From a virus: DNA of 64,000 bases. Each line of letters starts with the position of its first letter. Position 1 is the first letter of the stretch. Positions 43,732 through 59,629 of the stretch are shown here, in pieces. The notes under the pieces were generated by a model that was given only the letters and a program-made list of their open reading frames with translations, made no database searches and was not told where the DNA came from. The stretch is taken from IMG/VR virus record IMGVR_UViG_3300037063_000214. One strand, given 5' to 3'. Position numbers and translations under genes: made by a program.

Positions 43732-44012
43732 TGAGTAAACAGGCGGGGTTGATGCGTGAAATGGTGTGTTCGAAAGGGGATGTAATTCTAAAAAAAGAGA
43801 GTGATCTGCTGGTCAAAGATACGAAATTGACCACTTTATTTTTCCATATCTTCAATTGTGGTGAATGTAAAAAACCCGCACATTTCGGTTTGACTTTGAT
43901 GGCTTTGGCTGTAAGGGGTGCTACGGATATTGCTTTAGAAGAAGTCGCTGGACAAGGATATCAGGAGATTGTGAATGAAGAAGCTGGAGAAGCTGGAGCA
44001 GCGAGAAGCTGA
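43728..44012 (+). CDS. Hypothetical small protein (94 aa)
   Basis: GGAGGTG SD; ATGA overlap with the upstream gene. Confidence 0.4.
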   Translation: MMSKQAGLMREMVCSKGDVILKKESDLLVKDTKLTTLFFHIFNCGECKKPAHFGLTLMALAVRGATDIALEEVAGQGYQEIVNEEAGEAGAARS

Positions 44013-45322: not shown

Positions 45323-45616
45323 ATGCTTCCTACGCGTCGTCAAAAAAAGCGAATCCCTAAAGCAAAAGATATTGTTCTGATGATGCGAGCCTTATCCGCA
45401 TGTATTCCTATGCACGCTCGTCCGAACCATGGTTTGCGCGAGTCTTTGAAAGGGGTTGTAAACTACCGTTTTCAATGCATTACCTATGATGTGGATTGGA
45501 CGGTTGATGTATATCATGGAGATTTTTTTGTTGTAGGGGCTCGCAATTTTAATCAACCCTGTCCTTCGGTGTCATCTGCTATTAAACATTTGCGGCGTAT
45601 GTTAGGATTAAAGTAA
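45323..45616 (+). CDS. Hypothetical protein (97 aa)
   Basis: ORF only. Confidence 0.4.
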   Translation: MLPTRRQKKRIPKAKDIVLMMRALSACIPMHARPNHGLRESLKGVVNYRFQCITYDVDWTVDVYHGDFFVVGARNFNQPCPSVSSAIKHLRRMLGLK

Positions 45617-46191
45617 TGCTCATTCCTCTCGCTATAAACACAGAAGACGATATCAAAGTCATTTTAGCCCATCAAACCCTTATAACTAAAACAGCTCAAG
45701 CAGAATGCGTGCAAGAAGCATTGATCGATGGTGTACCTAAAGCCGCTGAACAATACATAAAAGATGAATCTAAAGTGTTGGAGAAATACGCCAGGTACCC
45801 CACTCTTACAGAATACAGCCTTATGCCCAACGCCTCCAGCGCATTTAAATGGGGGGCTACTTTTGGGGTTACAGCGTTAGTAGGTATTTTGATTCTTGAC
45901 GCTACTAAGCAATTGTTTGATGAAAAACCCGATTTAAAAGATGCGTATTTGCGTTATTTGATACAACTGGATGACCGACAAAAAACAATCAATTTAAACG
46001 ACAAAGTAACTAAAGTATTTACTGTATTATCTGAACATTTTGGGATTATCTGGGGAAAAAATGATACCATATCGCTTACAGTTGTAGGTCGGAGAGTACT
46101 GCTTCATTTGATAGATGCTCAAAAATTTGTTGAAGAGATCATTGAAGCTCATTCCCATTTACAGCCTAAAATCCCAGATACTAGTATTTAA
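45616..46191 (+). CDS. Hypothetical protein (191 aa) with one predicted TM segment
   Basis: ATG overlaps the upstream stop; hydrophobic stretch GATFGVTALVGILILDA. Confidence 0.45.
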   Translation: MLIPLAINTEDDIKVILAHQTLITKTAQAECVQEALIDGVPKAAEQYIKDESKVLEKYARYPTLTEYSLMPNASSAFKWGATFGVTALVGILILDATKQLFDEKPDLKDAYLRYLIQLDDRQKTINLNDKVTKVFTVLSEHFGIIWGKNDTISLTVVGRRVLLHLIDAQKFVEEIIEAHSHLQPKIPDTSI

Positions 46192-46195
46192 AGAA

Positions 46196-46669
46196 ATGAG
46201 GAAGGTATATTTAGCAGCTCCATTTGAGTGGATTGATCGAATGAAAGTATACGCACAAGAATTGCGTACACTAGGGTTTGAAGTAACTTCTCGTTGGCTA
46301 GATGAGCAATATAAAGGCGGGGAAACGGATATAACAAATGAAGACGGAGGCACCCAGTTAGATAAAAAAGATATTGCTATCAGTTACGCGATCAGAGATA
46401 TGCGAAATATTCTTGCGTCTGATATTTTAATCGAATTTAATCCTGGAAAAGCTCTGGTGCGAAATACCCGTTTAGCAGAATTTGGAGGCGCTCTCTTTTT
46501 AGGGAAGCAATGTATTGTAATTGGTCCTGAAAATCCAAAATATAGAGACCATATCGATACCGTTTTTATATTTTTGCAGGGTGATGCGCTCCCCGATGAT
46601 TTGAAGGCCGCTGGCATTAAACCAGTGAAGCATTTTCATACTTGGGAAGATTTTAAACAAACTATATGA
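46196..46669 (+). CDS. Nucleoside 2-deoxyribosyltransferase / DNPH1-like (Nuc_deoxyrib_tr superfamily) protein
   Basis: MRKVYLAAPFE... and NTRLAEFGGALFLGKQCIVIG resemble the YLAGPF and E-containing xGTxfElGyA motifs of this family. Confidence 0.55.
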   Translation: MRKVYLAAPFEWIDRMKVYAQELRTLGFEVTSRWLDEQYKGGETDITNEDGGTQLDKKDIAISYAIRDMRNILASDILIEFNPGKALVRNTRLAEFGGALFLGKQCIVIGPENPKYRDHIDTVFIFLQGDALPDDLKAAGIKPVKHFHTWEDFKQTI

Positions 46670-47448
46670 GCGTGAAGAAAACCGGTGTAATCGGAGTAGA
46701 ATATCCCACCACCCCGCTTCTTTTAGAGCGAACTGTAAAAATGCACAATATTTTGATCGGCAACGACACTACACAGATTCGTTTTGCTGAGCAATTTTTG
46801 TCTACCGTACACAACACCAAAATTTACCATCAGGAAATGCCTGTAGTTAACGATAGTCATCTTTTAGGTAAAGATGAACCTCAACTATATCTTGTAGAGC
46901 GTTCCGGCCTTATCGATATATCCCCACATGTTAAAACAAAAACAGGCATTTTTTCCACTGATATAATCCGGAAAGGTAGCACTGGCGTTCACGCTATTGT
47001 TCGTTTTGCGGCCCAACTTTTAGATATTAAAAAACCCGATAAAATTATAACTCAAAAAATAGCTGATGAAATTGTAGATGACATTTATGATATAAAAGCA
47101 AGTATTTGGTGGGCCGCTTGGCTTTTAAGCGGATCAGTGGTAGAAAAGAATAAATGGGTAAGACCTTGGGAAAATTGGTTAACTTGGATGCCAAGGGATG
47201 AAGACCCCAGGTATCGACTTAATTCCCTTTACTGGGAGTTAGTAATGTGGGTTTTTGCGGCCTTAGGAGACGAACGTGGATACAAAAAAACAAAAGGGCG
47301 CTGGAACCAAAAAAAATTTGAAAATTTAATACAATTAGCTTTGCCTAAAGATAGAGTTTACAGTAGCTTAGAGGTGCTTAGTATATGGCGAGAACGCCAA
47401 TATGACCCATATATTTGTATAATGAAAATATCTCAAATTTGGCGATAA
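46666..47448 (+). CDS. Hypothetical protein (260 aa)
   Basis: ATGA overlap with the upstream gene. Confidence 0.5.
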   Translation: MSVKKTGVIGVEYPTTPLLLERTVKMHNILIGNDTTQIRFAEQFLSTVHNTKIYHQEMPVVNDSHLLGKDEPQLYLVERSGLIDISPHVKTKTGIFSTDIIRKGSTGVHAIVRFAAQLLDIKKPDKIITQKIADEIVDDIYDIKASIWWAAWLLSGSVVEKNKWVRPWENWLTWMPRDEDPRYRLNSLYWELVMWVFAALGDERGYKKTKGRWNQKKFENLIQLALPKDRVYSSLEVLSIWRERQYDPYICIMKISQIWR

Positions 47449-47510
47449 TTTTTTGACTATGATACTCTTAGATATGTCGTTTGGTTACTAAGATAATCAA
47501 GCGGCATATT

Positions 47511-47539
47511 TGATTAATACAGCCAAGTGCAGTATTATC
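47511..47539 (+). promoter_or_regulatory. Sigma70-like promoter TTGATT-N17-TATTAT
   Basis: ttgatt at 47511-47516 and tattat at 47534-47539 in a 125-nt non-coding gap, about 35 nt before the GTG start with GAGGAG SD. Confidence 0.5.
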
Positions 47540-47573
47540 ATGCTATGGGGATTTTTCCCCGAGGAGAAACACA

Positions 47574-48236
47574 GTGAATAAATTCGCTAATATCTTTGCG
47601 GTAATCGTCCTCATGGTCGGTGTCGCTTTTGCACAAACTACTCCAACCACAACTGCTACTGAGTATTATGGTAGCCACTTCGCTCCCTATGTTGAAGGTT
47701 TTATCACTAATACCCCCACATCCAATAACACAGTAAACGGCAGCGTAGGGGCTGGTGTGGAATCTAACTATGAGCATCTGTACGTGGATGCTAATGGTCT
47801 TTTCAATACAACCCAAGCTACAGGCGGTGGGTACTCTGGTAGTTTTACAGCACAAGCCTATGCCAAGTTCGGATATGTATTGCTCGGCGGGGGTGCTAGT
47901 TTTGTAGAAAACTCAAACAGTTTTAGCACTTACTTCAATCATTGTGAAAAAGCGGGTGTAAAGGGTTGCGCTGTACTAGTCCAAAATTCCGCTAATCCAT
48001 TCGTGGGTGGTGGTGTTCAAGTTGGTCGTTTGCGCTCTATCTTTACTTACACAATTCCTGCGGCTAATGCACTTCCTGGACAACAGCAATTCAATGTTAA
48101 TACAGAATTCGCTGCAACCAAGCATATCCGTGTTGTAGTACCTGTACAGTTTACAACGTATTATGATGGTATTGTAAGCCCCACGCATTCTGCAACTGTC
48201 GGTCAATACGGCGGCGGTGTAAAGTTGGTGTGGTAA
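47574..48236 (+). CDS. Secreted outer-membrane beta-barrel-like protein (220 aa), a moron candidate (Lom/Ail/OmpX-like architecture)
   Basis: GTG start with GAGGAG SD. Signal peptide MNKFANIFAVIVLMVGVAFAQ. Alternating hydrophobic/polar, Gly/Tyr-rich segments; C-terminal aromatic ...GGGVKLVW. Own promoter and terminator. Confidence 0.55.
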   Translation: MNKFANIFAVIVLMVGVAFAQTTPTTTATEYYGSHFAPYVEGFITNTPTSNNTVNGSVGAGVESNYEHLYVDANGLFNTTQATGGGYSGSFTAQAYAKFGYVLLGGGASFVENSNSFSTYFNHCEKAGVKGCAVLVQNSANPFVGGGVQVGRLRSIFTYTIPAANALPGQQQFNVNTEFAATKHIRVVVPVQFTTYYDGIVSPTHSATVGQYGGGVKLVW

Positions 48237-48255
48237 TTGTACTTGTTTCTTCCCT

Positions 48256-48287
48256 AAGCCCCGGATCAAACCGGGGCTTTTCTTTTT
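48256..48287 (+). terminator. Rho-independent terminator
   Basis: aagccccgg-atcaaa-ccggggctt hairpin followed by TTCTTTTT. Confidence 0.8.
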
Positions 48288-48332
48288 GCCTATAATCCCT
48301 GCAAAAGCAGTATTAAACCTAAGCAGGAAATT

Positions 48333-48698
48333 ATGGCTACAAGCAAGTCTAAAATCGGGCGTGAAGAGTTAGTATCTAAAGTTCAAAGTAGACTCAAACT
48401 CAAAACCAAGAAGGAAGCTGATTACATCATAAACGAAGTAGTAGCGGCCCTTGAGTCTACTCTTTTAAGTAACCTCCAAACAAAAGATTTCACCTTGAAG
48501 CTGAGTTCCTTCGGGAAATTTACAGTACGGCATAAAACCGGCATTGTAAGATTCATCCCATTTACCCGTGAAGTAAAACAAACAAAGAATAAAAGAAAGA
48601 TTAGATTTACTCCATTGGGAGAATTGCGGAGAGCGGAACCAGAACCTGAAAGTGATCCTGTGAATTCAAAAAATGATCCAAAAGACAGTAGTAAATAA
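48333..48698 (+). CDS. HU/IHF-family histone-like DNA-binding protein with a C-terminal extension
   Basis: AGGAAA SD. ...FGKFTVRHKTGIVRFIPFTREV...KIRFTPLGELRR fits the HU arm signature. Confidence 0.5.
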   Translation: MATSKSKIGREELVSKVQSRLKLKTKKEADYIINEVVAALESTLLSNLQTKDFTLKLSSFGKFTVRHKTGIVRFIPFTREVKQTKNKRKIRFTPLGELRRAEPEPESDPVNSKNDPKDSSK

Positions 48699-48717
48699 AA
48701 GTAGGAGAGATACAAAT

Positions 48718-49572
48718 ATGCCAATACAACAATTTGATGATGATTTCGAAAATTTACCCGTTCAAAGCACAACCAAAAGTGCTGCTGCGGCTGCCCCCGC
48801 GGTTTCAACCAAAACACATACACAAAAACCAGTAGAAAACGAAGAAGAAGAAACACCAAAACCAAAAGTAAGTGATGATGAAGATCTTGCTACGGATTTT
48901 GACGATGAAAAAGTATATGCCCGTACGGGACAACTCAATCAATGCAGACCTGACAAGGGTAAAGCAGCACGATTCGCTTTCATCCCTAAGGATTGGTTTG
49001 CTCCACAAACAGCCAAGAACCATTTCATTGAGACGCTGGATGGCAAGGATGTAAAGAAAGGCCGCTATCGTTGTTTAACTCCTATGGGAGCGAATGCAGA
49101 GCCTCAATTTTGCTGCGTGGCCGTAGATAAAGATGGTGATGTAGAAGTTGTAGCTTTGGTTGTACGATACACAAACGCTGACCCTGTATCTGGGAAGTAT
49201 GTTAAGGATGCAGAAGGCAATTGGCCGCCTATTGAGTTTGAGATTCAATTTGTACGTTTGTCTCAATTTAACATGCGCCAGATCAAGAAACTTCCTGATG
49301 AAGATAGCGATCCTTTCAAGATCGATATTGTAATGACAAATGCTGAGGGCAGGGCATTTGGTTATGAATTTAACCGTAAGTCTAACGCCCCGCGCTGGAT
49401 GGGGGATCAAGCAAAGATCGATGAAGTTAAAGCAGCGGCTCAAAAGTTTATCAAGGATAACGGAAGGAAGTTGCGCTCTAAGCTCGGTCAAAAACTCAAT
49501 TTAACAGAATGGAAAGCGCTTCTCTCCAAGCGAGTCGGAGAAAGTAAAATAGAAAACCTAGAAGAGCTATAA
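48718..49572 (+). CDS. Hypothetical protein (284 aa), acidic N-terminus, possibly DNA-binding/SSB-like
   Basis: Strong AGGAGAG SD before the ATG at 48718. The track ORF 48673 starts earlier, inside the HU gene's end. Confidence 0.55.
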   Translation: MPIQQFDDDFENLPVQSTTKSAAAAAPAVSTKTHTQKPVENEEEETPKPKVSDDEDLATDFDDEKVYARTGQLNQCRPDKGKAARFAFIPKDWFAPQTAKNHFIETLDGKDVKKGRYRCLTPMGANAEPQFCCVAVDKDGDVEVVALVVRYTNADPVSGKYVKDAEGNWPPIEFEIQFVRLSQFNMRQIKKLPDEDSDPFKIDIVMTNAEGRAFGYEFNRKSNAPRWMGDQAKIDEVKAAAQKFIKDNGRKLRSKLGQKLNLTEWKALLSKRVGESKIENLEEL

Positions 49573-49590
49573 AACGAGGAGAAATTAAAG

Positions 49591-49620
49591 GGGTCGGAAA
49601 TACTCCGACCCTATTTTTTT
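49591..49620 (+). terminator. Rho-independent terminator
   Basis: gggtcgga-aatac-tccgaccc hairpin followed by TATTTTTTT. Confidence 0.8.
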
Positions 49621-49626
49621 GAAGAT

Positions 49627-50364
49627 ATGCTTATCTGCGGATTAGACTTTGAAAGTTCGGGCTTAAAAATCGAAACAATTGGTGTTACAGAAGTTGGTAT
49701 TATCATATGGGATACAGTAACTCGTTCCCCTATCCGATCATTCTCTACAATTGTAGATCCCGGGCCTGATGTTATTTGGGAACCTGGCGCATTAGAAGTA
49801 AATAACCTCACTCCAGAGATATGCCGTGATCTAGGCATGCCGGATGAGGAAGCAGCTAGAAGGTCACTTCGCTGGTATGGTAGTTCGGATGTAGCTTGCG
49901 CTCATAACGGCAATAAATTTGACCGCCCTCTGTTAGAGAAGTGGGCTAAAAAATATAACTTGGATTGGCAACCCAGTAAAGTATGGATAGATACAAAAAC
50001 TGATTTGGAACTACCAATAGGTAATAGCAATCGTTTGATTTACATGGCAGCAGATCGAGGATTTTGTAACCCTTTTCCTCACCGCGCTATTTTTGATGTT
50101 ATGACTATGTTAAAGGTACTTGACCATTACGATATTGATAAAGTAATGGAAATGGCCAAAAGTCCTAACCTTACTGTTAAAGCTCTTATCACTTTCGATC
50201 AAAATCAAGCGGTTAAAAATCGAGGTTACCACCCAAACTGGGAAACTAAACCCGATGGTTCAAAAGGTAAATTTCTTTACTGGTCCATGCCAATTAAAGA
50301 GTGCAAGTTAGACGCAGAGCGAATAGCTGCGCGAGCCGCGGGTTTTGAAATTGAGGTAATCTAG
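49627..50364 (+). CDS. DEDDh 3'-5' exonuclease (DnaQ-like)
   Basis: Exo I GLDFESSG; Exo II AHNGNKFDRPLL; Exo III PHRAIFDVMTM. Confidence 0.8.
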   Translation: MLICGLDFESSGLKIETIGVTEVGIIIWDTVTRSPIRSFSTIVDPGPDVIWEPGALEVNNLTPEICRDLGMPDEEAARRSLRWYGSSDVACAHNGNKFDRPLLEKWAKKYNLDWQPSKVWIDTKTDLELPIGNSNRLIYMAADRGFCNPFPHRAIFDVMTMLKVLDHYDIDKVMEMAKSPNLTVKALITFDQNQAVKNRGYHPNWETKPDGSKGKFLYWSMPIKECKLDAERIAARAAGFEIEVI

Positions 50365-51242
50365 TGGCGAAAGAAATTCTTGTTATTCCTAATATTCCAG
50401 CTCCTATGGTAATGGATCAATGGCTGGTTTTTGGTTTGGATTTATCTTTATCCCGCACCGGCTGGTCAGCATTGTATGTGAAAAAAACATCCGATCAAAC
50501 CGAAGCAAAATTTTTAAAGATAGGTTCTATCAAACCCGAATCTACTAAAGCACCAGTTTGGGTTAGAAGTAAATTAATAGCTAAAGGGTTGATGGATACA
50601 CTTCTAACTCCCGCAGTACGGAAGATTTTGAACACACCAAATACAGGTGTGTTATTTGTTTTTGAAGCCAGCACCCCAAAAAATGATTTCTTAAACGGTA
50701 TCTCTCAAGTTGTTCGTTCGGAATTTTTTACCGATCATGCGCTTGTTTCTTACATGGAAAATACCCCAGATAAAGGAGACATGCATACCTGTAATAGTCC
50801 GGAATGTTGTTCCGTCGATGCTAAATATATTTACACTTTATTAGTTAACGCCAGCACTCTTCGTAATATGATGCACCTTACTCAAAGAGGGGTTAAAAAC
50901 AAGAAAGAAAACATCGCCAGGGCATACGATTTTTTAAAAAAAGATGAATTTCCAGAAGTGGATAGTGATGCTTGTGATGCTGTTCTATTGGCGATGGTAG
51001 GCCGTTATGTCTGTTCTATTTTCACAGGATTTCCGAATGAGGTTCCTGGTGTTTTCCTGGACAAACTTTGTGATTCAAAACAAGAAATAAAAGGTAAAGG
51101 GCGCAATCAACACACTATCACTAAGGGTATATTGTATAGACCGGAATATTTTTACGCCCACCAGAATCAAAAGAGAACCTTACTCCTTAAAGACGCCAGT
51201 CAACCAGTAAAAAAGCTACAGAAAATATGGTTTGAAGTATAA
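50364..51242 (+). CDS. RuvC-like Holliday-junction resolvase
   Basis: WLVFGLDLSLSRTGWSAL resembles RuvC motif I (GIDPGxxxTGyav). C-terminal DSDACDAVLLAM resembles DAADALAIA. Confidence 0.6.
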   Translation: MAKEILVIPNIPAPMVMDQWLVFGLDLSLSRTGWSALYVKKTSDQTEAKFLKIGSIKPESTKAPVWVRSKLIAKGLMDTLLTPAVRKILNTPNTGVLFVFEASTPKNDFLNGISQVVRSEFFTDHALVSYMENTPDKGDMHTCNSPECCSVDAKYIYTLLVNASTLRNMMHLTQRGVKNKKENIARAYDFLKKDEFPEVDSDACDAVLLAMVGRYVCSIFTGFPNEVPGVFLDKLCDSKQEIKGKGRNQHTITKGILYRPEYFYAHQNQKRTLLLKDASQPVKKLQKIWFEV

Positions 51243-51306
51243 GTCAGTATTAAACTAACAGTCCAACTTAAAACCCATCGGGTAAAGCAGAGACTCAGAG
51301 GATATA

Positions 51307-52587
51307 ATGCCAAAAAAAACAGCTCCCATAGACACCCGCAATTTAACAGTTGAAGCCCGTCGAGAACTTTTTCTTAAAAGCAGAGAAGAAGATAAACCAG
51401 ATTTTCAAGTACTCACCAAAGATTATGTAGATGAATTGACCCCTTACGGGTTGATCACATTTGATACTGTATTAGGCTTGGGCGGCATCGCTCGCCGCGG
51501 ATGTGTGTCGCAGATACACGGCGACGAAGGCGTTGGCAAGTCCACTCTCACCTATACCATCGCTAAAAATTATCAAGAATATACTGGAGAACCATTGGGT
51601 ATATTTGATTTTGAGGGCACAGGTAGACCCGCTTACTTGGAACGCATTGGATGTGACCTAGATATGGTTAAATTGATTCAACCCATTAGCATGGAAGAAT
51701 CTGTCAAGGAAACCATTCGATTGATCCGGCAAGGTTGCCGTTTCTTCATTTATGATTCGATTCCTTGCATGAACTCTATGGTAGAGGAAACCGATATTAT
51801 GAGTGGCAAAGTGTTCAAAGCGAGCTATGGTAAACAAGCTCAAGTCATGGGAAATTTCTATCGAATTTTACGCCCCTATGTTCAACAAGCAGACGGGCAT
51901 ATGTTCATGGTTAATCAAACCAGGGCTCGTATTGACGACAGCAATGAAGCAAAGTATGCCAATGATTACAGCTATACAAATAAAACATACCAGCTTCCAG
52001 GAGGACGTATTTCCCGCTTTACCCCATCCGTGATGATCGAAATGCGCATGGTAAAAGAAGTAAAACCCTATGATGGAAAACCTGGTATAACACCGGATAA
52101 AGATGGTTTCATTGTAGAGTCCGCTACTCCTGAGACTAAAGATAAACCATGTGTCAATAGAGTAAGAGTCCGTACCCTAAAAAATAAAGTAACGGGCGCT
52201 GGGTTTCGTGAGGGGTTCATTTGGGTTCGTCCAGCAACTCATCCTTGTCCTGGTATTGATGATCTGATGAGTGTGCGTGAGCTGGCGCGTCATTATGGTT
52301 TCATTCAAAATAAAGGGGCTAAGTGGTTTGTCGGAAAAACAGCAGATGAGGCTATCCAGGCTTATCCCAACAAAGATGCAGCGATTGATGATTTGGTGAT
52401 AAAGAAAAACCCTGAGGTACATGCGAAGTTAAAATCTCTTGTTGCAGAGGCTGTAAGGTCTGATAGCACTGGTCGTTTTAATACAACTCTTACAACAGAA
52501 GATTTAGAGTTGCTTGAAGGAGATGATGCTCTAGCTCCAGTGGGGGTAGGTAAGAATATCGTTTCATTTGATGAGGAAGAGAACTAA
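51307..52587 (+). CDS. RecA-family recombinase (UvsX/Sak4/RecA-like)
   Basis: GAGGA SD. FDTVLGLGGIARRGCVSQIHGDEGVGKSTLT has Walker A, and the following IFDFEGTG...IYDSIPCM matches the RecA core layout. Confidence 0.7.
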   Translation: MPKKTAPIDTRNLTVEARRELFLKSREEDKPDFQVLTKDYVDELTPYGLITFDTVLGLGGIARRGCVSQIHGDEGVGKSTLTYTIAKNYQEYTGEPLGIFDFEGTGRPAYLERIGCDLDMVKLIQPISMEESVKETIRLIRQGCRFFIYDSIPCMNSMVEETDIMSGKVFKASYGKQAQVMGNFYRILRPYVQQADGHMFMVNQTRARIDDSNEAKYANDYSYTNKTYQLPGGRISRFTPSVMIEMRMVKEVKPYDGKPGITPDKDGFIVESATPETKDKPCVNRVRVRTLKNKVTGAGFREGFIWVRPATHPCPGIDDLMSVRELARHYGFIQNKGAKWFVGKTADEAIQAYPNKDAAIDDLVIKKNPEVHAKLKSLVAEAVRSDSTGRFNTTLTTEDLELLEGDDALAPVGVGKNIVSFDEEEN

Positions 52588-52593
52588 TAACGA

Positions 52594-53766
52594 ATGTCTA
52601 CGAGCATCAAACTATCAGGGAAAAATTTCCAGAGCTGGGATGCATTTGATTTAACGCTTGCTGGATTGACTGTATTAACTGGTCCTTCAGACACTGGGAA
52701 AAGCGCCATTTTTCGTGCTTTAAAAGGCGTATTACGAAATGAACTCCCTATTGACTGGATACGAAATGATCAAGATGAATCTTTAGAAGTTCGACTTGAA
52801 TTAGATAACCACATTGTTACAGTGAAACGCCCTCTTAAGGGTTCTACTACATACACCATTGATGATAAAGTTTTTGCTAAACTCGCCGGTGCTATACCAG
52901 ATAAAGTAAAAGAGCTTAAATTTGGTGATGTGGTTATCGGAGAATATGATGTAGACCCCATATTTGGGCGGCAGAATAGTCCTCAGTTTCTTATTGATCC
53001 TGATACATTCAAACCTCCGGAAGTAAATGCTATTTTAGGGGCATTTGGGGGTACTGAAAAACTTGAACACGGTAAGAAAGAAGCCAATCTACGCAAGACT
53101 CAAAAAGATGCTGAAGCTCGCACTCTAGCTGTTCAGATACGAGACGCTGAAGAACGGAAGGCCGCTTTAACCGTCCTGCAAACTCAAGGTGACAGTTTAG
53201 AGACTGTTTTGCAGGAACTGGAAGCGACTATTTTAATCGTGGAACTGGAAAATCATTGGTTAGAACAGGCTATTGCATGTCGCCAGCGTATAATCCCCCT
53301 TCGAGAAATTCAAGAAACTCTCATTTTACCCGATATTTCGGATTTAGAACTGATGTACCAGCAAATTCAAAAGGCAGACCAGGCAGCAGAAGCAACAGCT
53401 TACGCTAAATGGCTTAAAAAACCGTCTACAATCACTTCTGCGGTCGTTGGGCAGTGGGATGAGGCTAGACGGCATTGGAACCTGATCGAAGCGCTAGGAA
53501 GCACTGTAGAAGCAGGAAAGCACATCGTATCCACAGATAAGCTAAAAGCAGCTTTACAGGGCATAGAAACTCTATATTCTGATACTGTTGGGCTTTGGGG
53601 CGGTATTAAAAGACTTGAGGTACTTGGAGCGCTACTAGACGAACTATCGGATTCGACTAATCGATTGGTCGGGGTTGAAGGTGAACTTCTGGTAGCGCAA
53701 ACCGAGGCTCAAAAAGGGCTTTGCCCCAAATGTGGATCCCCAATGTTTCATGTTTGTAAAGGATAA
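52594..53766 (+). CDS. SbcC/Rad50-like SMC-type ATPase (short form, 390 aa) with a C-terminal Cys pair
   Basis: N-terminus KLSGKNFQSWDAFDLTLAGLTVLTGPSDTGKSAIFRAL matches the AAA_23/SbcC N-terminal Walker A. Coiled-coil middle; ends CPKCGSPMFHVC. Confidence 0.5.
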   Translation: MSTSIKLSGKNFQSWDAFDLTLAGLTVLTGPSDTGKSAIFRALKGVLRNELPIDWIRNDQDESLEVRLELDNHIVTVKRPLKGSTTYTIDDKVFAKLAGAIPDKVKELKFGDVVIGEYDVDPIFGRQNSPQFLIDPDTFKPPEVNAILGAFGGTEKLEHGKKEANLRKTQKDAEARTLAVQIRDAEERKAALTVLQTQGDSLETVLQELEATILIVELENHWLEQAIACRQRIIPLREIQETLILPDISDLELMYQQIQKADQAAEATAYAKWLKKPSTITSAVVGQWDEARRHWNLIEALGSTVEAGKHIVSTDKLKAALQGIETLYSDTVGLWGGIKRLEVLGALLDELSDSTNRLVGVEGELLVAQTEAQKGLCPKCGSPMFHVCKG

Positions 53767-53768
53767 TC

Positions 53769-54068
53769 ATGTCAGAAATAACACAAGAAAATCTAAAGAA
53801 AATTCAAGCCAGGGTAAAGGCCTTACAGAGCAGTAGAGACGAAATCATTGGAACTCTTAAGGTTCAGGAGAGCAAAAGAGATGAAGCTTATGTTAAACTG
53901 AAAGAGTTGGGTATCGCTAACCCTGAAAAAATGACGGCGAAAGAACTACAAGCACTGGCTGATCAAAAGAAAAATGAATTAGCAGAAAAAATAGACGCTT
54001 TGAATGATCAGCTGGCGCAGGGCGAGAAGTTGATTCAACAATACGAAGAATTGCAACAGGAGAATTAA
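53769..54068 (+). CDS. Coiled-coil hypothetical protein (99 aa)
   Basis: ATG overlaps the upstream stop; heptad-rich E/K/Q sequence. Confidence 0.45.
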   Translation: MSEITQENLKKIQARVKALQSSRDEIIGTLKVQESKRDEAYVKLKELGIANPEKMTAKELQALADQKKNELAEKIDALNDQLAQGEKLIQQYEELQQEN

Positions 54069-54069
54069 T

Positions 54070-54621
54070 ATGTCAATAATACCGATGGTAAAACCAGCCG
54101 TGGTAGAAAAGCAACCGGATGGCACATATGTGGTAAGAATTCAGCATACTGAAGGGGGAGATGTATCTCAAGTTTCTTTTGGTCACTGGACTTTTGGAGA
54201 ATCCCTAGCAAATGCTTATGCAGCCTTCATTAACGGAGCTTCAAATATAGATTCAAAAATAGATAAACTGGCTTCTGAGATGGAAGCCGCGGCACCAGAT
54301 GCTAAGGCTGATATTAAAAAGGCTACGGAACTAGCTCAGGATCAAGCTAAAGTTATTATCGCTGATGCTAAGGTAGAAGCGGATAAGCTTGTGGCAGCGG
54401 CTAAAGAAGAAATCGTAAAGGTAACAGCAAATGCTGAAGCTTTTTATGAAGATACAAAAAATGAAGCTCGTCAACTTTTAACTGAAGCCCGATCGGAAGC
54501 AGCTAAAATATTAGCTAAAGCTGCGGAAGCTGTAAAGCCTCTTGTACCAGATCCAGTACCGTTCCCCACTAAACCAACAAAGCCATCAAAGTCAACTAAG
54601 CCAGAAATTGATGAGGAATAA
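54070..54621 (+). CDS. Coiled-coil hypothetical protein (183 aa), Ala/Glu/Lys-rich
   Basis: AGGAGA SD; AEAxK repeats. Confidence 0.5.
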   Translation: MSIIPMVKPAVVEKQPDGTYVVRIQHTEGGDVSQVSFGHWTFGESLANAYAAFINGASNIDSKIDKLASEMEAAAPDAKADIKKATELAQDQAKVIIADAKVEADKLVAAAKEEIVKVTANAEAFYEDTKNEARQLLTEARSEAAKILAKAAEAVKPLVPDPVPFPTKPTKPSKSTKPEIDEE

Positions 54622-54647
54622 TGTCGATTTTACCGGAGTTGTTTTAA

Positions 54648-55199
54648 ATGGACGATAAAACCCCGTTTGGTAAAATGGTTTATCTAGCATCGCCATATAC
54701 CCACGAAAACAGAGAAGTAGAAACAGAGCGCTTCATCGCGGCTGTTAAAGCTTGTGGGTGGTTGATGGTTAACATTTCAGATGTTCAAATGATTTACTCT
54801 CCCATCGCTCATACACATCCTATCGCTGATGTATGTACTCTTCCTGGTTTTTGGAGTTTTTGGGAAGCTTGCGATAAATGTATGCTCTCACGCTGTGATG
54901 AAATTTGGATTCTCACGCTCGATGGTTGGGAGACCTCTACGGGAGTAACAGCAGAACGGCAGATTGCTTCGGAGTACGGATTGAAAGAAAAATTCGTGGT
55001 TCCTCAATCTGATGGTGGATATGCAGTGGAGGCTTACGAGAAAAAACAAAAAATAAAAGGTAGATCATTTCTTGGATTTCATTTACATGACTGGTCTAAA
55101 TGGGAAGTTGTAAATAGAGGTGAAATTAGATCCGGGATAAAACAAAAGAGAGTTTGTTTAACCTGCAATACAAAGCAAGTTGATATAGAGTGGGTATAA
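54648..55199 (+). CDS. Nucleoside 2-deoxyribosyltransferase-like (DUF1937-type) protein
   Basis: GGAG SD. KMVYLASPYTHENRE... and TSTGVTAERQIASEYGLK fit the YLAsPY...E motif of the family. Confidence 0.5.
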   Translation: MDDKTPFGKMVYLASPYTHENREVETERFIAAVKACGWLMVNISDVQMIYSPIAHTHPIADVCTLPGFWSFWEACDKCMLSRCDEIWILTLDGWETSTGVTAERQIASEYGLKEKFVVPQSDGGYAVEAYEKKQKIKGRSFLGFHLHDWSKWEVVNRGEIRSGIKQKRVCLTCNTKQVDIEWV

Positions 55200-55432
55200 A
55201 GGTGCATAAATATTTACGAATACCTTCTTCCAAACGCATAGAAATGCTCAAAAGTAATATTAGTATCTGTGAAAACACTCTTCAGCATGTCAATAATTGC
55301 ATCGAATGTCAAGAAGCTAAAGATGAAGAATTGTGCCCTTTGGGTCAAAAGATGTTTGATGAATTTTTAGTATTCCAAGCTCGTTGTAAATATTTAAACT
55401 TGATTGGAGAAAATGCTGATGTCATTTTTTAA
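55190..55432 (+). CDS. Small Cys-containing hypothetical protein (80 aa)
   Basis: ORF overlapping the upstream gene's end; CIECQEAKDEELCP. Confidence 0.3.
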   Translation: MGIKVHKYLRIPSSKRIEMLKSNISICENTLQHVNNCIECQEAKDEELCPLGQKMFDEFLVFQARCKYLNLIGENADVIF

Positions 55433-55718
55433 TGAATTTCATATAGCGGATGAAAAAACATGCAAAGCTCGCTGGAGTTGCGGCAAACCTGGGTTGTTGT
55501 TTTTCTGTGCCTTTTGTGGGTATAAGTTCGTTGTTGGAGATGAATATCGAGTAACTTATACGAATGACACTGATGCTGGTGGTAATCCCCTTACATGTAG
55601 ACCTTGTGATACTAAATTTGGTGGTTTAGACGGGTGCCGTAAAGTTTGGATAGAAATGAATGAAGAATACCGTACCAAGTTCAAGTATTTCTACTACAGA
55701 GATTTGTATGGTGATTAA
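55413..55718 (+). CDS. Zinc-ribbon small protein (about 101 aa)
   Basis: GGAG SD 5 nt before the ATG at 55413 (track TTG start 55404). CKARWSCG...CAFCGYKF...CRPCDTKF. Confidence 0.45.
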   Translation: MLMSFFNEFHIADEKTCKARWSCGKPGLLFFCAFCGYKFVVGDEYRVTYTNDTDAGGNPLTCRPCDTKFGGLDGCRKVWIEMNEEYRTKFKYFYYRDLYGD

Positions 55719-56715
55719 ACTCCAAGATCCAAAAAACAGAGTAAACTTAGTTTGGTCAACTGACTGGCACCTTACTGACATCCCACCCGCTAGGCGTAAA
55801 GATGATTATCGTAACGCTATCTTAGCAAAAATAGAATTCATTCGTGATCTAGTAGAAAAACTTAACGGAGCCGGTTTATGTGGAGGTGACGTTTTTCACT
55901 ATAAAATCCCTAAACATGCTGGAAACAGCATCCGTTTGATTATCGATTTGATGCACGCTTTAAGAAAGTTTCCTCAGGGTAAAGTATTTGGTTCCATTGG
56001 AAACCATGATTTATCCTGGGATCGTATGGATACACTACCTCGTCAACCATTGGGTTTATTGATCGCTGTAGGCGCTTACCATGACCTGAATACTGAACCT
56101 GTTATTTTTACTAATGCTGATGATACTGTACGAGTATCCGTTGAAACTTTTCCATTTGCTGAAGGGGATGTTACGATTCAAAATATCAAAAACGCGGATC
56201 CTAGGCAACCTCATGTAGACCATAGAATAGGCATTGTACACGCTTACGGGTATCCTGGAGACGCTGGTTCAATGTTTGGCACCCGAAAAATAGGCTATAA
56301 TGAATTGATTGGTACAGACTTTGATATACTGCTGTGGGGGCATGATCATTCAAGACATGAAACTATAGAAGTGGGCGGCTGCACCCATATAAATTTGGGG
56401 AGTTTGGCTCGTGCAGCGTTTACTTATGATGAGGTTGAACGCCCAGTGTGCGCAGCTATTCTTTCCTTTGAACCAAGCGGTGCTTTCAAATATGGAGAAA
56501 AAGAAATTCCGGTGAAACCCTTGCAAATAGCTTTTGCAGCCGCAGATAAGGGTGTAGAGCAAATAGCAAAGTCTGATGATATCACTTCGTTTTTTGCGGA
56601 TATGGATGCTGCGGTACAGGGAATTGAAGTCAATGATCCTAAAGTAGTTATTAAAGAGTTGTGTGCTGGGGATATCAATTTAGAGAATTTGATTTTAGAG
56701 CTGTGTGATTTATAA
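55708..56715 (+). CDS. SbcD/Mre11-like calcineurin-fold nuclease (metallophosphoesterase)
   Basis: VWSTDWHLTD (DxH), GGDVFH (GD), GNHD (GNHD/E), GHDH motifs in order. ATG at 55708 inside track ORF 55660. Confidence 0.65.
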   Translation: MVIKLQDPKNRVNLVWSTDWHLTDIPPARRKDDYRNAILAKIEFIRDLVEKLNGAGLCGGDVFHYKIPKHAGNSIRLIIDLMHALRKFPQGKVFGSIGNHDLSWDRMDTLPRQPLGLLIAVGAYHDLNTEPVIFTNADDTVRVSVETFPFAEGDVTIQNIKNADPRQPHVDHRIGIVHAYGYPGDAGSMFGTRKIGYNELIGTDFDILLWGHDHSRHETIEVGGCTHINLGSLARAAFTYDEVERPVCAAILSFEPSGAFKYGEKEIPVKPLQIAFAAADKGVEQIAKSDDITSFFADMDAAVQGIEVNDPKVVIKELCAGDINLENLILELCDL

Positions 56716-56736
56716 ACACTAAGCATCCCTCTTAAC

Positions 56737-56958
56737 ATGGAGACTCGCCGCAGCGATGTAGTGGAAGAACGAGTATATAAGGCGGCTTGGCATATACTCA
56801 TAGCTGGAATTGGTTTTTACGAATTTCGTCACCATCGGACAACTGCCTCCAAAGTATTGGCCTGTGGGTTAATGGCTTTTCATGTTGATGGAGCAATATC
56901 CGATATTCTGGACTCCAAACCCCTATCTCAAAGACTTTTAGATCGTATTCTTCGCTAG
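56737..56958 (+). CDS. Small two-TM membrane protein (73 aa); holin-like topology is possible
   Basis: Hydrophobic segments AAWHILIAGIGFY and KVLACGLMAFHV with a charged C-terminus. Confidence 0.35.
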   Translation: METRRSDVVEERVYKAAWHILIAGIGFYEFRHHRTTASKVLACGLMAFHVDGAISDILDSKPLSQRLLDRILR

Positions 56959-56998
56959 TCTTCCAATCCTTGGTATTAACAATCTGAAAGGATTTTTT

Positions 56999-57355
56999 AT
57001 GCTTGAAAAAGTTAAGTATGATGCTACACCTCAACCTTTACCAGTGGGAGGAACTATAGATGTAGCAATTGAAGTTGCAAAAGACCTAAAAGCGATGGGG
57101 CTAGAAAACATTGCAGAATGTGTTGAAGCTCGTATTCGCTTAGGTGAAAAAAAGTATGGAACTCGTTTAAAAGCGCATAATGGTAGAGACGCAATGACCG
57201 ATTTATTTGAGGAGCTTCTCGATGCTTTGAACTATTCAAAACAAATTCAACTTGAAAGTACTAATGGCGACACTTATTTTTACCCAGAACTTCTTAAATT
57301 AGTCATTAAGGTTAAAGCCAGTCTTGACCTAAAACATTCAACTAAAGTAGAATAA
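56999..57355 (+). CDS. Putative all-alpha NTP pyrophosphohydrolase (MazG-like)
   Basis: ENIAECVEARIRLGEKKYG ... DAMTDLFEELLDALNY resemble the ExxE...E/DxxD metal-binding helices of MazG/HisE-type enzymes. Weak. Confidence 0.3.
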   Translation: MLEKVKYDATPQPLPVGGTIDVAIEVAKDLKAMGLENIAECVEARIRLGEKKYGTRLKAHNGRDAMTDLFEELLDALNYSKQIQLESTNGDTYFYPELLKLVIKVKASLDLKHSTKVE

Positions 57356-57369
57356 AACCAGGAGGAAAT

Positions 57370-59541
57370 ATGAATCGTATTGTATCCGCACTTATCGTTT
57401 TTGTATTATTTGTAACCCCAGTTTTTGCTAGAAACCATCCATTGAAACGTCATGTCCGCAAAGAAGTTACATCGGCTGCTCGTGTAAGTGACCTTCCAGC
57501 AGATCGTCAATTGATTATGGCTATTATGTTGCCTCTCCGCAATGAGTCAACTTTAACAGCTCTTTTACAGCAAATAAACACCCCATCAAGTCCTTTGTAT
57601 CACCAGTTTCTAACGCCTGAACAATTCACTAAAGAGTTTGGTCCAACGGAACAGGATTATCAAGCGGTAGTTCGTTTTGCTATAAAGCAGGGGTTTTTTG
57701 TGTACAAACAACACACTAATCGTATACTTGTTGATATCACTGGATCTACAGCACAAATAGAAAAAGCTTTCAATGTAAAAATGGGGTTATATAAACATCC
57801 TATTGAAAATCGTAATTTTTATTCTCCAGATGTAGAACCGTCTCTTGATTTAGATGTTCCAATCTATCGTATTGCTGGTTTAAATAATTTCTCTATTCCT
57901 AGTCGTAGATTGATTAAGCGTTCATTTAACGCTCGTCTATCAGATGTAGTTGCAGGGTCTGGTCCTAGCGGTTCTTTCCGTCCATCGGATATGCGAGCGG
58001 CATATTATGGATCAGGTACTTTGACAGGTACCGGTCAATCTGTGGGCATGTTAGAGTTCGATGGTTATAATATCGCAGATGTAAATTCTGATATGGGGGG
58101 TGTTGCTTATACCGTACCTGTACAGAATATTCTTGTCGATGGTGCAAGTGCTGGCTCTGATGGAGATGATGGAGAGCAAGCTTTGGATATCGCTCAAGCT
58201 ATCGGTATGGCACCGGGGTTAACTTCTGTACGGGTTTACATCGCCCCAGGCAATTCCGCCATAGGTACCGGAGATGTGGATATTTTTAATCAAATGGCTG
58301 TGGACAACATTTCCAAACAATTGAGTTGTTCTTGGGGTTGGAGTCCCGATGATATAACTGATGATGACCCTATTTTTAAAGAATTCGCAGCACAGGGTCA
58401 AAATCTTTTTGTAGCCTCTGGAGATGCTGGTAAGTATACGGGAAATAACAATAATGATAGCAGCTACCCAGCTGAAGATCCGTATGTTGTAGCTGTTGGC
58501 GGTACGGATTTAACTACAAATGGTGCTGGAGGAACTTGGCAAACAGAAACGGCTTGGTCGGATAGCAGTGGTGGTCCAGCGGACGATGGTTTTGCAATTC
58601 CTAGCTGGCAAGTAGGAGTAGCAAATTCTAATGGTGCTTCTACAGCAATTCGTAATGTTCCGGATGTTGCCGCAGAAGCAAATTTCGATAATATTATGTG
58701 TGATGATGGCGCTTGCACTTACAATCAAACTGGGGGTACTAGCTATGCTGCGCCTCGCTGGGCTGGCTATATGGCTTTAGTGAATCAGCAGAACATGACT
58801 AATCATGGTACTACTTTAGGTTTCTTGAATCCCTTGATTTATCCCATTGGTTTCGGTGCTGCGTACACTATTAATTTTCACGATATTACAAGCGGGAGCA
58901 ATGGGCATCCGGCTACTGTTGGGTATGATATGGTAACTGGTTGGGGTAGTCCTAATGGGGCAACTTTAATCAATACTTTAACAGGCGCTCCAACCGGAGT
59001 AGGATTACAAGCAACTTATAATCCAACCTATAAAACTCCAGCATGTACAGTTGTCAGTAATTCCTGTGATTCAGGCCCAACTCTACTTTTAGGTCGCGGA
59101 AATGTGCATAACGGTGCGGAACAAAATCACCCCAATACAATCAATAACTCTTGCGGGGATGGGAACTCGGGGGTATTTCACTCCTATGAATCAAATGATC
59201 GCCTTGCGGTAGCTTCTGTATCTGGTGGGTTGTTAACCGCGGGTACAAAAGCAACGATAACAGCCACAGTATGGGCTCGAAAGGATTTTGAAAGCGATTC
59301 TCTTGACCTTTACGTTACTTCAAATGTTGTAAATCCTACTTGGGTTTATATCGCTACGCTTAAGCCCACTAAAGATGCACAAAATATTTTATCGACTACA
59401 TTTACTCTCCCAGCCTCCGGCAATTTACAAGCTGTACGAGCACATTTTCGATATGAGGGACATGTGAATCCATCGGCTTGTGGTAATTCTTCTGGTGGAG
59501 AGTATGATGATTATGATGATTTAGTTTTTGCGGTGAATTAA
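57370..59541 (+). CDS. Secreted S53-family serine peptidase (sedolisin/kumamolisin-like) with an N-terminal pro-kumamolisin activation domain
   Basis: AGGAGG SD. Signal peptide MNRIVSALIVFVLFVTPVFA. Pro-domain QFLTPEQFTKEFGPTEQDYQAVVRFA. Catalytic Ser motif GGTSYAAPRWAG; Asp/Glu-rich catalytic region. Confidence 0.8.
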   Translation: MNRIVSALIVFVLFVTPVFARNHPLKRHVRKEVTSAARVSDLPADRQLIMAIMLPLRNESTLTALLQQINTPSSPLYHQFLTPEQFTKEFGPTEQDYQAVVRFAIKQGFFVYKQHTNRILVDITGSTAQIEKAFNVKMGLYKHPIENRNFYSPDVEPSLDLDVPIYRIAGLNNFSIPSRRLIKRSFNARLSDVVAGSGPSGSFRPSDMRAAYYGSGTLTGTGQSVGMLEFDGYNIADVNSDMGGVAYTVPVQNILVDGASAGSDGDDGEQALDIAQAIGMAPGLTSVRVYIAPGNSAIGTGDVDIFNQMAVDNISKQLSCSWGWSPDDITDDDPIFKEFAAQGQNLFVASGDAGKYTGNNNNDSSYPAEDPYVVAVGGTDLTTNGAGGTWQTETAWSDSSGGPADDGFAIPSWQVGVANSNGASTAIRNVPDVAAEANFDNIMCDDGACTYNQTGGTSYAAPRWAGYMALVNQQNMTNHGTTLGFLNPLIYPIGFGAAYTINFHDITSGSNGHPATVGYDMVTGWGSPNGATLINTLTGAPTGVGLQATYNPTYKTPACTVVSNSCDSGPTLLLGRGNVHNGAEQNHPNTINNSCGDGNSGVFHSYESNDRLAVASVSGGLLTAGTKATITATVWARKDFESDSLDLYVTSNVVNPTWVYIATLKPTKDAQNILSTTFTLPASGNLQAVRAHFRYEGHVNPSACGNSSGGEYDDYDDLVFAVN

Positions 59542-59624: not shown

Positions 59625-59629
59625 AATTT

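Follow-up and report, generated by a model that had tools for sequence, protein, structure and literature searches.

Results

The window, by which we mean the whole 64,000-nucleotide stretch of IMG/VR record IMGVR_UViG_3300037063_000214 that was analysed, comes from a large uncultured soil or peat phage with a genome of ~150 kb (relatives reach 463 kb) and a composition of 41% GC, the window itself lying at ~38-45% GC. Together the window and its flanks, from -8.9 kb to +73.4 kb, cover ~82 kb of this genome of roughly 150 kb. A sequence-only reading had picked out three genes, here called ORF1, ORF2 and ORF3, as two members of the nucleoside 2-deoxyribosyltransferase (NDT)/DNPH1 superfamily and a MazG-like protein that might edit the nucleotide pool for modified DNA. 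All three are present on the + strand at the positions it gave, within the following set of features.

45323..46191, + strand: two tightly packed genes upstream of ORF1 (97 aa and 191 aa, stop/start overlap)
46196..46669, + strand: ORF1, 157 aa, divergent NDT-superfamily protein (Y5/D68/E95)
46666..47448, + strand: 260-aa gene, its ATG sharing bases with the stop codon of ORF1 (ATGA)
48256..48279, + strand: intergenic terminator-like hairpin (9-bp stem, 7 GC, T-run)
49590..49612, both strands: second intergenic terminator-like hairpin
52594..53766, + strand: SbcC/Rad50-type N-terminal ATPase (AAA_23; PHROG 16465 'exonuclease', 1.5e-12; PHROG 77 'SbcC-like')
54648..55199, + strand: ORF2, 183 aa, DUF1937 domain at residues about 10-115 (Y12/D76/E103)
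55660..56715, + strand: calcineurin-like metallophosphoesterase (Pfam Metallophos, 3e-5; weak PHROG 284 'exonuclease')
56999..57355, + strand: ORF3, 118 aa, small helical protein (very large family without a Pfam model)

Genomic context

ORF1, ORF2 and ORF3 all belong to the replication/recombination module of this ~150-kb phage, and each is syntenic with its relatives. The true start of ORF1 is the ATG at 46196, the Met at which its homologues also start; a start at the upstream ATG at 46115 would make ORF1 overlap the gene before it. The order helicase, two small genes, ORF1, 260-aa gene, HU, RNase T-like exonuclease and RecA is kept at all 12 of 12 related loci, which are 36-76% identical and lie on contigs that measure 29-463 kb and include several fragments. 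The 97-aa and 191-aa genes are syntenic with ORF1 at every one of these loci, and the 260-aa gene, for which no match was found in Pfam or the PDB, adjoins ORF1 in all relatives. The hairpin at 48256..48279 ends the unit that contains ORF1, and the hairpin at 49590..49612 lies upstream of a block comprising the exonuclease, RecA, the SbcC-like ATPase and ORF2. ORF2 is flanked upstream by the SbcC-like ATPase, which has a CxxC motif at its end, and downstream by the metallophosphoesterase. The ATPase is a conserved upstream neighbour, an SbcC-like gene being followed by DUF1937 in three relatives. The metallophosphoesterase directly follows DUF1937 at loci L022 and L032, and at L033 its position is taken by a 272-aa gene with no Metallophos match on record. 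Its identification as Mre11/SbcD is tentative, and the PDB yielded no match for it.

The sequence-only reading treated the three genes as one set, a view that does not hold. They form neither a cluster nor an operon: the spacings are 8 kb and 1.8 kb, at least 14 genes lie between them, and two strong terminator-like hairpins stand between ORF1 and ORF2/ORF3. The distance from ORF2 to ORF3 also differs among relatives, as do the intervening genes, and nothing was found to support one system made of all three.

ORF2 is a DUF1937 protein

By its sequence, ORF2 clearly qualifies as a bona fide DUF1937 member, as its predicted superfamily membership would have it. It matches DUF1937 (PF09152) with 52.6 bits (E=8.5e-14) against a Pfam cut-off of 23, PHROG 355 'nucleoside 2-deoxyribosyltransferase' at 1.7e-13, and PDB 1T1J, a DUF1937 hypothetical protein of Pseudomonas aeruginosa, at 1.5e-7 by sequence and 1e-16 by profile; its fold would, by homology, be that of 1T1J. 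Among the matches listed, PF09152 is present in all but one of 120 ORF2 relatives, the exception being a 104-aa fragment. Y12 and E103 are invariant in the relatives and D76 is conserved in at least 90%; S51-P52 and S97-x-G99 are also invariant, and the transferase-type proline is present. ORF2 also carries a C-terminal extension of ~60 residues (HxH...CxxC), which is specific to its lineage and missing in most DUF1937 members.

ORF1 is a divergent superfamily member

For ORF1 the predicted membership stands at the level of fold, family profile and catalytic triad, but not at that of the Pfam family named. Its score against PF05014 is 12.7 bits (E=0.14), below the cut-off of 28.8, and a precomputed PF05014 match exists for only 4 of the 104 relatives among the matches listed; as a Nuc_deoxyrib_tr (PF05014) protein in the strict sense we reject it, on this score and on the absence of the 5'-OH-binding Asp discussed below. 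A profile of 23 ORF1 sequences matched PDB nucleoside 2-deoxyribosyltransferases and a CMP N-glycosidase at E of about 0.005-0.02. The AlphaFold model (pLDDT 90.2, pTM 0.86) gave NDT, BcmB, YtoQ and DNPH1 as top Foldseek matches, with E from 3.7e-4 and TM of about 0.5; every match at E<=1e-3 was an NDT, those to BcmB, YtoQ, DNPH1 and MilB (the last from rank 23 on) were weaker, and TIR/ThsB structures were among the lower-ranked. Family profile, model and Foldseek together thus confirm membership at the level of the flavodoxin-like alpha/beta fold, by matches that are individually weak (E about 0.005 for the profile against the PDB, TM about 0.5, a score below the Pfam cut-off). Y5, D68 and E95 are unchanged in 23 relatives. 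R89 and R92, in the loop preceding the nucleophile Glu, are invariant, and ~20 residues are inserted after strand 2.

Shared catalytic features

The Tyr/Asp/Glu catalytic triad is kept in both proteins: Y5/D68/E95 of ORF1 and Y12/D76/E103 of ORF2 correspond in the alignments to Y7, D62 and E88 of Chroococcidiopsis NDT, the positions at which PDB 8pqp, 8pqs and 9emx carry mutations. Alignment of the two family profiles with hhalign (E=4.5e-4) pairs D68 with D76 and E95 with E103. In the PDB, both families match nucleoside 2-deoxyribosyltransferases best (PF05014; Chroococcidiopsis NDT, PDB 8pqp/8qc0). In true nucleoside transferases an Asp six residues before the nucleophile Glu binds the 5'-OH (PMC12884076), and this residue, D82 of Chroococcidiopsis NDT, was found by profile alignment to be replaced in both ORF1 and ORF2. 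Its place would be taken by S97 in ORF2 and by V88/R89 in ORF1, in a loop one residue longer, these phosphate-loop equivalences coming from low-scoring alignments with a one-residue indel. ORF1 has no proline at all between P9 and P83 and lacks the proline that is said to shield transferases from water (PMC12884076).

ORF3 is not MazG

Every test spoke against the suggestion that ORF3 is MazG-like. No match was found in Pfam for ORF3 or 21 relatives, in NCBIfam, or in the PDB for profiles of 22 and 44 sequences, and hhalign against MazG-type families gave probabilities of 0.1-1%, the control reaching 91.7%. In MazG proteins, metal is bound by two acidic motifs, EExxE on one helix and ExxD on another; ORF3 shows a single conserved acidic helix (D68, E72, D75). 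ORF3 gave no match to the four-helix fold of solved MazG/dUTPase-like structures, and its last helix is not conserved, many family members ending near residue 86. Like the all-alpha NTP pyrophosphohydrolases MazG and MazZ, ORF3 is helical, and its D68-x3-E72-x2-D75 helix resembles EExxE by eye and is the site of the sole hhalign local alignment; unlike them, it has no second metal-binding helix. With that motif missing and no significant similarity by any method, we reject ORF3 as a MazG pyrophosphohydrolase. It belongs to a phage family of about 10,000 sequence clusters with a conserved core of R45, G49, Y53, G54, L57, N61-G62-R63, D68 and E72, and it is not part of the putative nucleotide-pool activity of ORF1 and ORF2.

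Discussion

ORF1 and ORF2 are further members of an already known superfamily, and both are probably active enzymes. The explanation that we favour, and to which we give an even chance of being right, is that they are two independent NDT/DNPH1-superfamily enzymes that reshape the nucleotide pool during phage replication, with ORF3 standing apart. Both would attack an N-glycosidic bond by way of a covalent Glu-(deoxy)ribosyl intermediate. The loop that precedes the nucleophile, which reads Ser-x-Gly in ORF2 as it does in DNPH1 and holds a pair of invariant arginines in ORF1, suggests that they probably use 5'-phosphorylated substrates. The likeliest reading is that they are N-glycosidases or transferases acting on 5'-phosphorylated nucleotides. 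DNPH1 (Rcl), MilB and BcmB are (deoxy)nucleoside 5'-monophosphate N-glycosidases with the same fold as ORF1 (Foldseek E 2e-3 to 5e-2) and a Glu nucleophile, the Ser-x-Gly-x3-Glu of ORF2 being as in DNPH1; ORF1 differs from them in its two invariant arginines, longer loop and ~20-residue insertion, and ORF2 in its unique SPIAHTHP motif. Because the proline is absent from ORF1, this protein would most likely be a (d)NMP N-hydrolase. ORF2 combines proline and phosphate-type pocket, like DmtZ, and may therefore both transfer deoxyribose 5-phosphate between bases and hydrolyse.

Phage precedent for pool editing by this superfamily, as the sequence-only reading had presumed, does exist: DmtZ of Z-genome phages is an NDT-superfamily dAMP N-hydrolase and deoxyribose-5-phosphate transferase (PMC12884076), and it keeps the pool-editing idea plausible. 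DmtZ (Gordonia phage Ghobes, Arthrobacter phage Wayne) resembles the proteins described here in being a phage-encoded NDT-superfamily enzyme, one without a Pfam match, and in its triad of Tyr, Asn or Asp, and Glu and its 5'-phosphate pocket without Asp (PMC12884076); the transferase-type proline it shares with ORF2. Unlike the DmtZ phages, the phage studied here is much larger and carries ORF1 and ORF2 in a recombination module, with no dUTPase-like DutZ as neighbour. It is unlikely that NDT-like enzymes, with or without ORF3, here destroy canonical dNMPs or dNTPs so that a non-canonical base enters the DNA. DmtZ, DutZ and MazZ play such a role in Z-genome phages (for DmtZ, PMC12884076), a preprint links NDT statistically to dZ phages (10.1101/2025.10.22.683976), and polymerase and nucleotide-metabolism genes probably lie in the other ~68 kb of the genome. 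Against this, the ~82 kb examined yielded no PurZ, DatZ, dUTPase-like protein, TS-like hydroxymethylase, DpdA or DNA glycosyltransferase, which bears out, and extends to the flanks, the earlier observation that the window holds no modification enzyme; nothing in these ~82 kb shows chemical modification of the phage DNA. ORF3 is not MazG, the three genes are not clustered, and tblastn in a phage collection matched no record with ORF1 and 26 with ORF2, among them no Gordonia or Arthrobacter phage.

We likewise assign a low probability to classical salvage, in which ORF1 and/or ORF2 would swap bases on deoxynucleosides from degraded host DNA (dN + base') and shift the precursor pool toward the 41% GC of the phage, whose DNA would be unmodified. 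By structure and by profile the closest matches are indeed true nucleoside 2-deoxyribosyltransferases, ORF2 keeps the transferase-type proline, and a window GC of about 38-45% would fit; however, neither family has the Asp with which nucleoside transferases hold the 5'-OH (PMC12884076), and the proline is absent from ORF1.

The contexts of DUF1937 genes in cultured phages differ, and the substrate could therefore be a nicotinamide nucleotide or another nucleotide rather than a dNMP. In Caulobacter phage CcrBL9 the DUF1937 gene belongs to a PnuC-NMN adenylyltransferase operon, overlapping the end of the NMN adenylyltransferase gene, which itself follows the PnuC transporter; in a Vibrio phage that is unrelated, it shares sequence with the gene of a small phosphoesterase. 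ORF1 and/or ORF2 might cleave, exchange or bind a nicotinamide- or ADP-ribose-derived nucleotide, either in NMN/NR salvage or in removal of TIR-type immune signals, instead of acting on DNA precursors. The annotation of a Rhizobium phage homologue as a TIR-domain protein, the TIR/ThsB matches of ORF1, and the presence, 8-16 kb downstream in the same phage, of a NADAR gene and a Sequestin 3'cADPR sponge (10.1101/2025.07.12.664507) point the same way. We nevertheless doubt this role: in this lineage ORF1 and ORF2 lie among replication/recombination genes, not anti-defence genes, no NAD-salvage gene adjoins either, and the intact triad favours an NDT-type enzyme over a sponge. It is very improbable that ORF2 is an accessory factor of an SbcC-like/metallophosphoesterase nuclease, acting on DNA ends or damaged nucleotides within DNA and not on free nucleotides, as its conserved neighbours and the Vibrio phage overlap might suggest, since DUF1937 is found in many other contexts, the Mre11/SbcD identity of the phosphoesterase is weak, and no DNA-acting superfamily member appears in the cited literature or among the structural matches here.

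Phage nucleotide-pool editing by NDT-superfamily enzymes has been demonstrated only recently (DmtZ, 2026). As a long shot, the ORF1 family could be an unannotated NDT branch with an arginine-lined phosphate loop, fixed at the core of the replication module throughout a clade of large-to-huge soil and peat phages, which with DUF1937 performs a DmtZ-like dNMP base exchange that supplies a non-canonical base; if so, all phages of the clade would carry chemically modified DNA, produced by a hitherto undescribed route. The finding that ORF3 is not MazG removes a false lead, and the ORF3 family of ~10,000 clusters marks a large gap in phage annotation. ORF1 and ORF2, which are conserved in a clade whose phages reach 463 kb, are two cheap, well-defined expression targets with intact catalytic residues, and their differing pocket features predict substrate class.

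Organisation of the phage genome

The sequence-only reading saw in three genes, ORF1, ORF2 and a MazG-like ORF3, a possible system for editing the dNMP/dNTP pool in favour of modified DNA. Our analysis partly confirms it: two of the three are genes of the nucleoside 2-deoxyribosyltransferase (NDT) superfamily, and none is MazG. All three ORFs are present. The DNA of the window is phage, and the region around these genes is a long stretch of + strand genes. The features discussed are as follows.

1-39,500: tail, baseplate, tail-fibre and lysis proteins
40,130 onward: replication/recombination module
46196-46669 (+): ORF1, 157 aa, divergent NDT-superfamily protein
54648-55199 (+): ORF2, 183 aa, DUF1937 (PF09152) protein
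56999-57355 (+): ORF3, 118 aa, small helical protein

The module encodes a DEAD-type helicase, DnaJ-like and HU-like proteins, an RNase T-type exonuclease, RecA, an SbcC-like ATPase, a metallophosphoesterase and a 5'-3' exonuclease. Contigs carrying genes of the window reach 133,018 and 152,942 bp; one extends ~68.7 kb beyond the upstream edge of the window and another stops ~12.6 kb past its end, and the window therefore represents roughly 40% of a genome of roughly 150 kb. Relatives in IMG/VR lie on contigs of 29-463 kb, six of them longer than 200 kb; when the phage itself was sought there, a 29% relative was the single match. Compared by megablast with 50,697 phage records, the region gave zero matches, so no near-identical cultured phage was found. 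In search of a host, 185,579 species genomes were scanned twice with ORF1 patterns, with only two weak, unrelated matches. The sample names WOOD18 and JGI 3300014491 presumably point to thawing-permafrost peat. Promoter scanning gave 39 candidates versus 38.6 in shuffled sequence, that is, no excess.

Several other genes of the region merit description. The DnaJ-like protein (43975-44634), upstream of the ORF1 block, has weak, sub-threshold matches to the J domain (25.2 versus 27.8 bits) and the CXXCXGXG zinc-finger domain (28.2 versus 32.7), and its gene is missing from all 12 related loci compared. The module helicase of a more distant relative (L038, 531-3275) contains intein domains (Hom_end_hint, with a faint Hom_end match). 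One metagenomic variant of this phage (L004, 15488-16633) carries an inserted IS605 OrfB/TnpB-like gene with a Cas12f1-like TNB domain; it follows the 5'-3' exonuclease region, at a site where other variants lack such an insert. Inside the run of replication genes lies a 723-aa sedolisin-type S53 peptidase (57370-59541), an unusual cargo in a phage, with a pro-kumamolisin activation domain (E=3e-26), a hydrophobic N-terminus resembling a signal peptide and a weak, sub-threshold C-terminal GEVED-domain match (21.2 bits, cut-off 24.4). Directly 3' of its gene is a tRNA-Ala (anticodon TGC, 59549-59624). Because the GTG start listed mechanically for ORF 59579-60595 falls within this tRNA, the true start of that ORF is probably further downstream; some metagenome gene calls give 321 aa.

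ORF1 and ORF2 belong to the NDT superfamily

ORF2 is unambiguously assigned to DUF1937, matching the Pfam family at E=8.5e-14 (52.6 bits, cut-off 23), PHROG 355, 'nucleoside 2-deoxyribosyltransferase', at 1.7e-13, and PDB entry 1T1J at 1.5e-7 as a single sequence and 1e-16 as a family profile. Six residues, Y12, S51, P52, S97, G99 and E103, do not vary across 20 relatives, and conservation of D76 is at least 90%. In the profile, Y12, D76 and E103 align to Y7, D62 and E88 of Chroococcidiopsis NDT, which carry mutations in PDB entries 8pqp, 8pqs and 9emx. The C-terminal ~60 residues of ORF2 are absent from most homologues.

ORF1 is more divergent. Its start should be the ATG at 46196, giving 157 aa, as homologues begin at the same Met and the alternative ATG at 46115 would run into the preceding gene. 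The Pfam match to PF05014 fell below the cut-off (12.7 bits, E=0.14; cut-off 28.8), searches of PHROGs and NCBIfam gave zero matches, and tblastn found none in phage records. Searched against the PDB, a 23-sequence profile matched a series of nucleoside 2-deoxyribosyltransferases as well as BcmB, a CMP N-glycosidase, with E=0.005-0.02. AlphaFold gave a confident model (pLDDT 90.2, pTM 0.86), and its Foldseek matches in the PDB at E<=1e-3 were exclusively NDTs (best E 3.7e-4, TM ~0.5); weaker matches comprised BcmB, YtoQ, DNPH1 and MilB, mixed with a few FMN-dependent azoreductases. Residues Y5, W34, D68, R89, R92 and E95 are invariant across the family, and Y5, D68 and E95 align to the NDT triad in the profile. 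The Asp-to-Glu segment also aligns between the ORF1 and ORF2 profiles (hhalign E=4.5e-4, probability 33%). The two proteins are members of one superfamily, kin at that level only and not recent paralogues. The identification of two NDT-superfamily genes was therefore right, for ORF2 through DUF1937 and for ORF1 through profile, model, Foldseek and conserved triad.

ORF3 represents a large family distinct from MazG

The small helical protein ORF3 is not detectably MazG-like, and its earlier assignment as such is withdrawn. MazG-type Pfam families matched neither ORF3 nor any of 21 relatives up to E=5, NCBIfam gave zero matches, and no PDB sequence was matched by the single sequence or by profiles of 22 or 44 sequences. 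A MazG-domain profile was built from E. coli MazG, its sequence validated by a 93.5% match to an annotated Salmonella MazG, together with annotated phage MazG genes. Against it, ORF3 profiles gave hhalign probabilities of 0.1% and 0.3%, while the control, the MazG C-terminal domain against an N-type profile, gave 91.7%. Of the MazG-like helices proposed, one conserved acidic helix (D68, E72, D75) stands and the second metal-binding helix is missing; many family members stop near residue 86. A Lockin-type nucleotide sponge was also considered, and rejected because Lockin is a beta-sheet protein.

At E<=0.001 the ORF3 family comprises 9,937 cluster representatives (50% identity), 6,157 of them at E<=1e-10, with a majority of the members listed being 90-150 aa long, and has an invariant polar core of R45, G49, Y53, G54, L57, N61-G62-R63, D68 and E72. 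Neither Pfam nor NCBIfam has a model for it, no structure has been solved, and members from cultured phages bear the label 'hypothetical protein' or an uninformative gp number. A weak match of ORF3 to PHROG 139, 'dNMP kinase' (E=0.002), is confined to the C-terminal tail of that profile. Scanned for fusions as clues to role, ten longer members held no Pfam domain, nor did a 364-aa Salinibacter phage protein or gp50 of Streptomyces phage Galactica; the Galactica gene lies between those for a helicase and DNA polymerase I.

Three genes in a conserved gene order

There is no evidence in favour of ORF1, ORF2 and ORF3 acting as one system. ORF1 is separated from ORF2 by 8 kb, and ORF2 from ORF3 by 1.8 kb, with many genes between. 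Strong terminator-like hairpins at two intergenic sites, 48256-48279 and 49590-49612, set the ORF1 unit apart from the rest. ORF1 is tightly packed with three genes, with stop/start overlaps at 45616 and 46666-46669, and this block is kept in 12 of 12 related loci together with the order helicase, ORF1 block, HU, exonuclease, RecA; ORF1 identity across these loci is 36-76%. ORF2 is flanked by the SbcC-like ATPase gene and the metallophosphoesterase gene. The SbcC-like gene again precedes DUF1937 in three relatives, and a phosphoesterase follows it in L022 and L032 (the L033 gene at that place has no recorded Metallophos match). An ORF3 homologue lies 4-5 kb beyond the DUF1937 gene in the two relatives checked (L032 and L033), with different intervening genes. 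Given this spacing, the hairpins, the conserved order and the varied intervening genes, the co-occurrence of the three genes therefore reflects general synteny of the phage lineage and not a dedicated cluster.

Within the ORF1 block, a 260-aa gene coupled to ORF1 had no Pfam or PDB match, also when a 10-sequence profile was used. The ORF1 transcription unit further includes a 220-aa protein (47574-48236) with a hydrophobic N-terminus resembling a signal peptide. In a relative, the gene at this position matches OMP_b-brl (PF13505), and tblastn detected no similarity between the two products. The 220-aa protein may be an outer-membrane beta-barrel protein encoded by the phage, in which case the host would be Gram-negative.

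Predicted mechanism and possible roles

Fold, family and conserved triad are shown for ORF1 and ORF2; the mechanism beyond these is predicted, with pocket-residue equivalences taken from weak sequence alignments. In the NDT superfamily the Glu is the residue of the covalent intermediate; the position that binds the 5'-OH is Asp/Asn in nucleoside transferases and is taken by small uncharged residues in nucleotide hydrolases, and a conserved proline keeps water out of the transferases (PMC12884076). The ORF2 loop reads S97-x-G99-x3-E103, and in the profile S97 aligns to the 5'-OH Asp (D82), and invariant P52 to P40, of Chroococcidiopsis NDT. This combination is shared with DmtZ and suggests that ORF2 would be a dNMP hydrolase, perhaps also capable of deoxyribose 5-phosphate transfer. 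ORF1 has zero prolines between P9 and P83, a loop one residue longer, and invariant arginines at positions -3 and -6 relative to E95; the lack of proline and the two arginines suggest a hydrolase that would act on an anionic (5'-phosphate) substrate.

Editing of the nucleotide pool for modified DNA is a plausible role for such enzymes, with a true precedent in DmtZ and an NDT tied to dZ phages, although the genomic context lends it no support. Pfam was run on every window ORF of 100 aa or more and on several smaller ORFs, and precomputed Pfam calls covered the flanks from about -8.9 kb to +73.4 kb. Neither the window nor these flanks showed a thymidylate-synthase-like hydroxymethylase, PurZ, DatZ, dUTPase, DpdA or DNA glycosyltransferase. 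DNA polymerase and nucleotide-metabolism genes were likewise not seen there, and so are probably located in the remaining ~68 kb of the genome. In a relative (L032, 5153-5839), the metallophosphoesterase gene and the ORF3 homologue flank a gene for an N6/N4 DNA methyltransferase; ordinary DNA methylation is thus present in the lineage, and the window has no such gene at the matching position.

Classical deoxynucleoside salvage is possible, but the pocket residues agree less well with it. Other contexts suggest a nicotinamide-nucleotide or counter-defence role. In the cultured jumbo phage CcrBL9 of Caulobacter (L031, 4350-6411), the DUF1937 gene belongs to a tight string of overlapping genes with those for a PnuC-like transporter and an NMN adenylyltransferase, in which the DUF1937 gene overlaps the 3' end of the NMN adenylyltransferase gene, itself after PnuC; this string hints that some DUF1937 proteins may act on nicotinamide nucleotides. 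Downstream in our phage, past the window end, a Sequestin (PF21825) protein is encoded at ~65,130-65,354 (L009, 12340-12564), and beyond it lie two AAA ATPases and a NADAR-domain protein (L009, 20189-20654; ~72,979 onward), which together look like a counter-defence neighbourhood. The Sequestin family has been shown to sponge the Thoeris signal 3'cADPR (10.1101/2025.07.12.664507).

Least likely is a DNA-directed role with the SbcC-like ATPase and metallophosphoesterase that flank ORF2. Single-sequence PDB searches for Mre11 or Rad50 identity of these neighbours gave nothing significant. The SbcC-like protein (52594-53766) is only 390 aa long; it comprises the N-terminal half of the ATPase and an extended helical part, and its end, CPKC...HVC, is similar to a zinc hook. 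As no nearby gene was recognised for the C-terminal ATPase half, it may be a split or truncated Rad50/SbcC.

The analysis thus yields two good biochemical targets, ORF1 and ORF2, and one corrected annotation, that of ORF3, whose family constitutes a sizeable blind spot in the annotation of phages.
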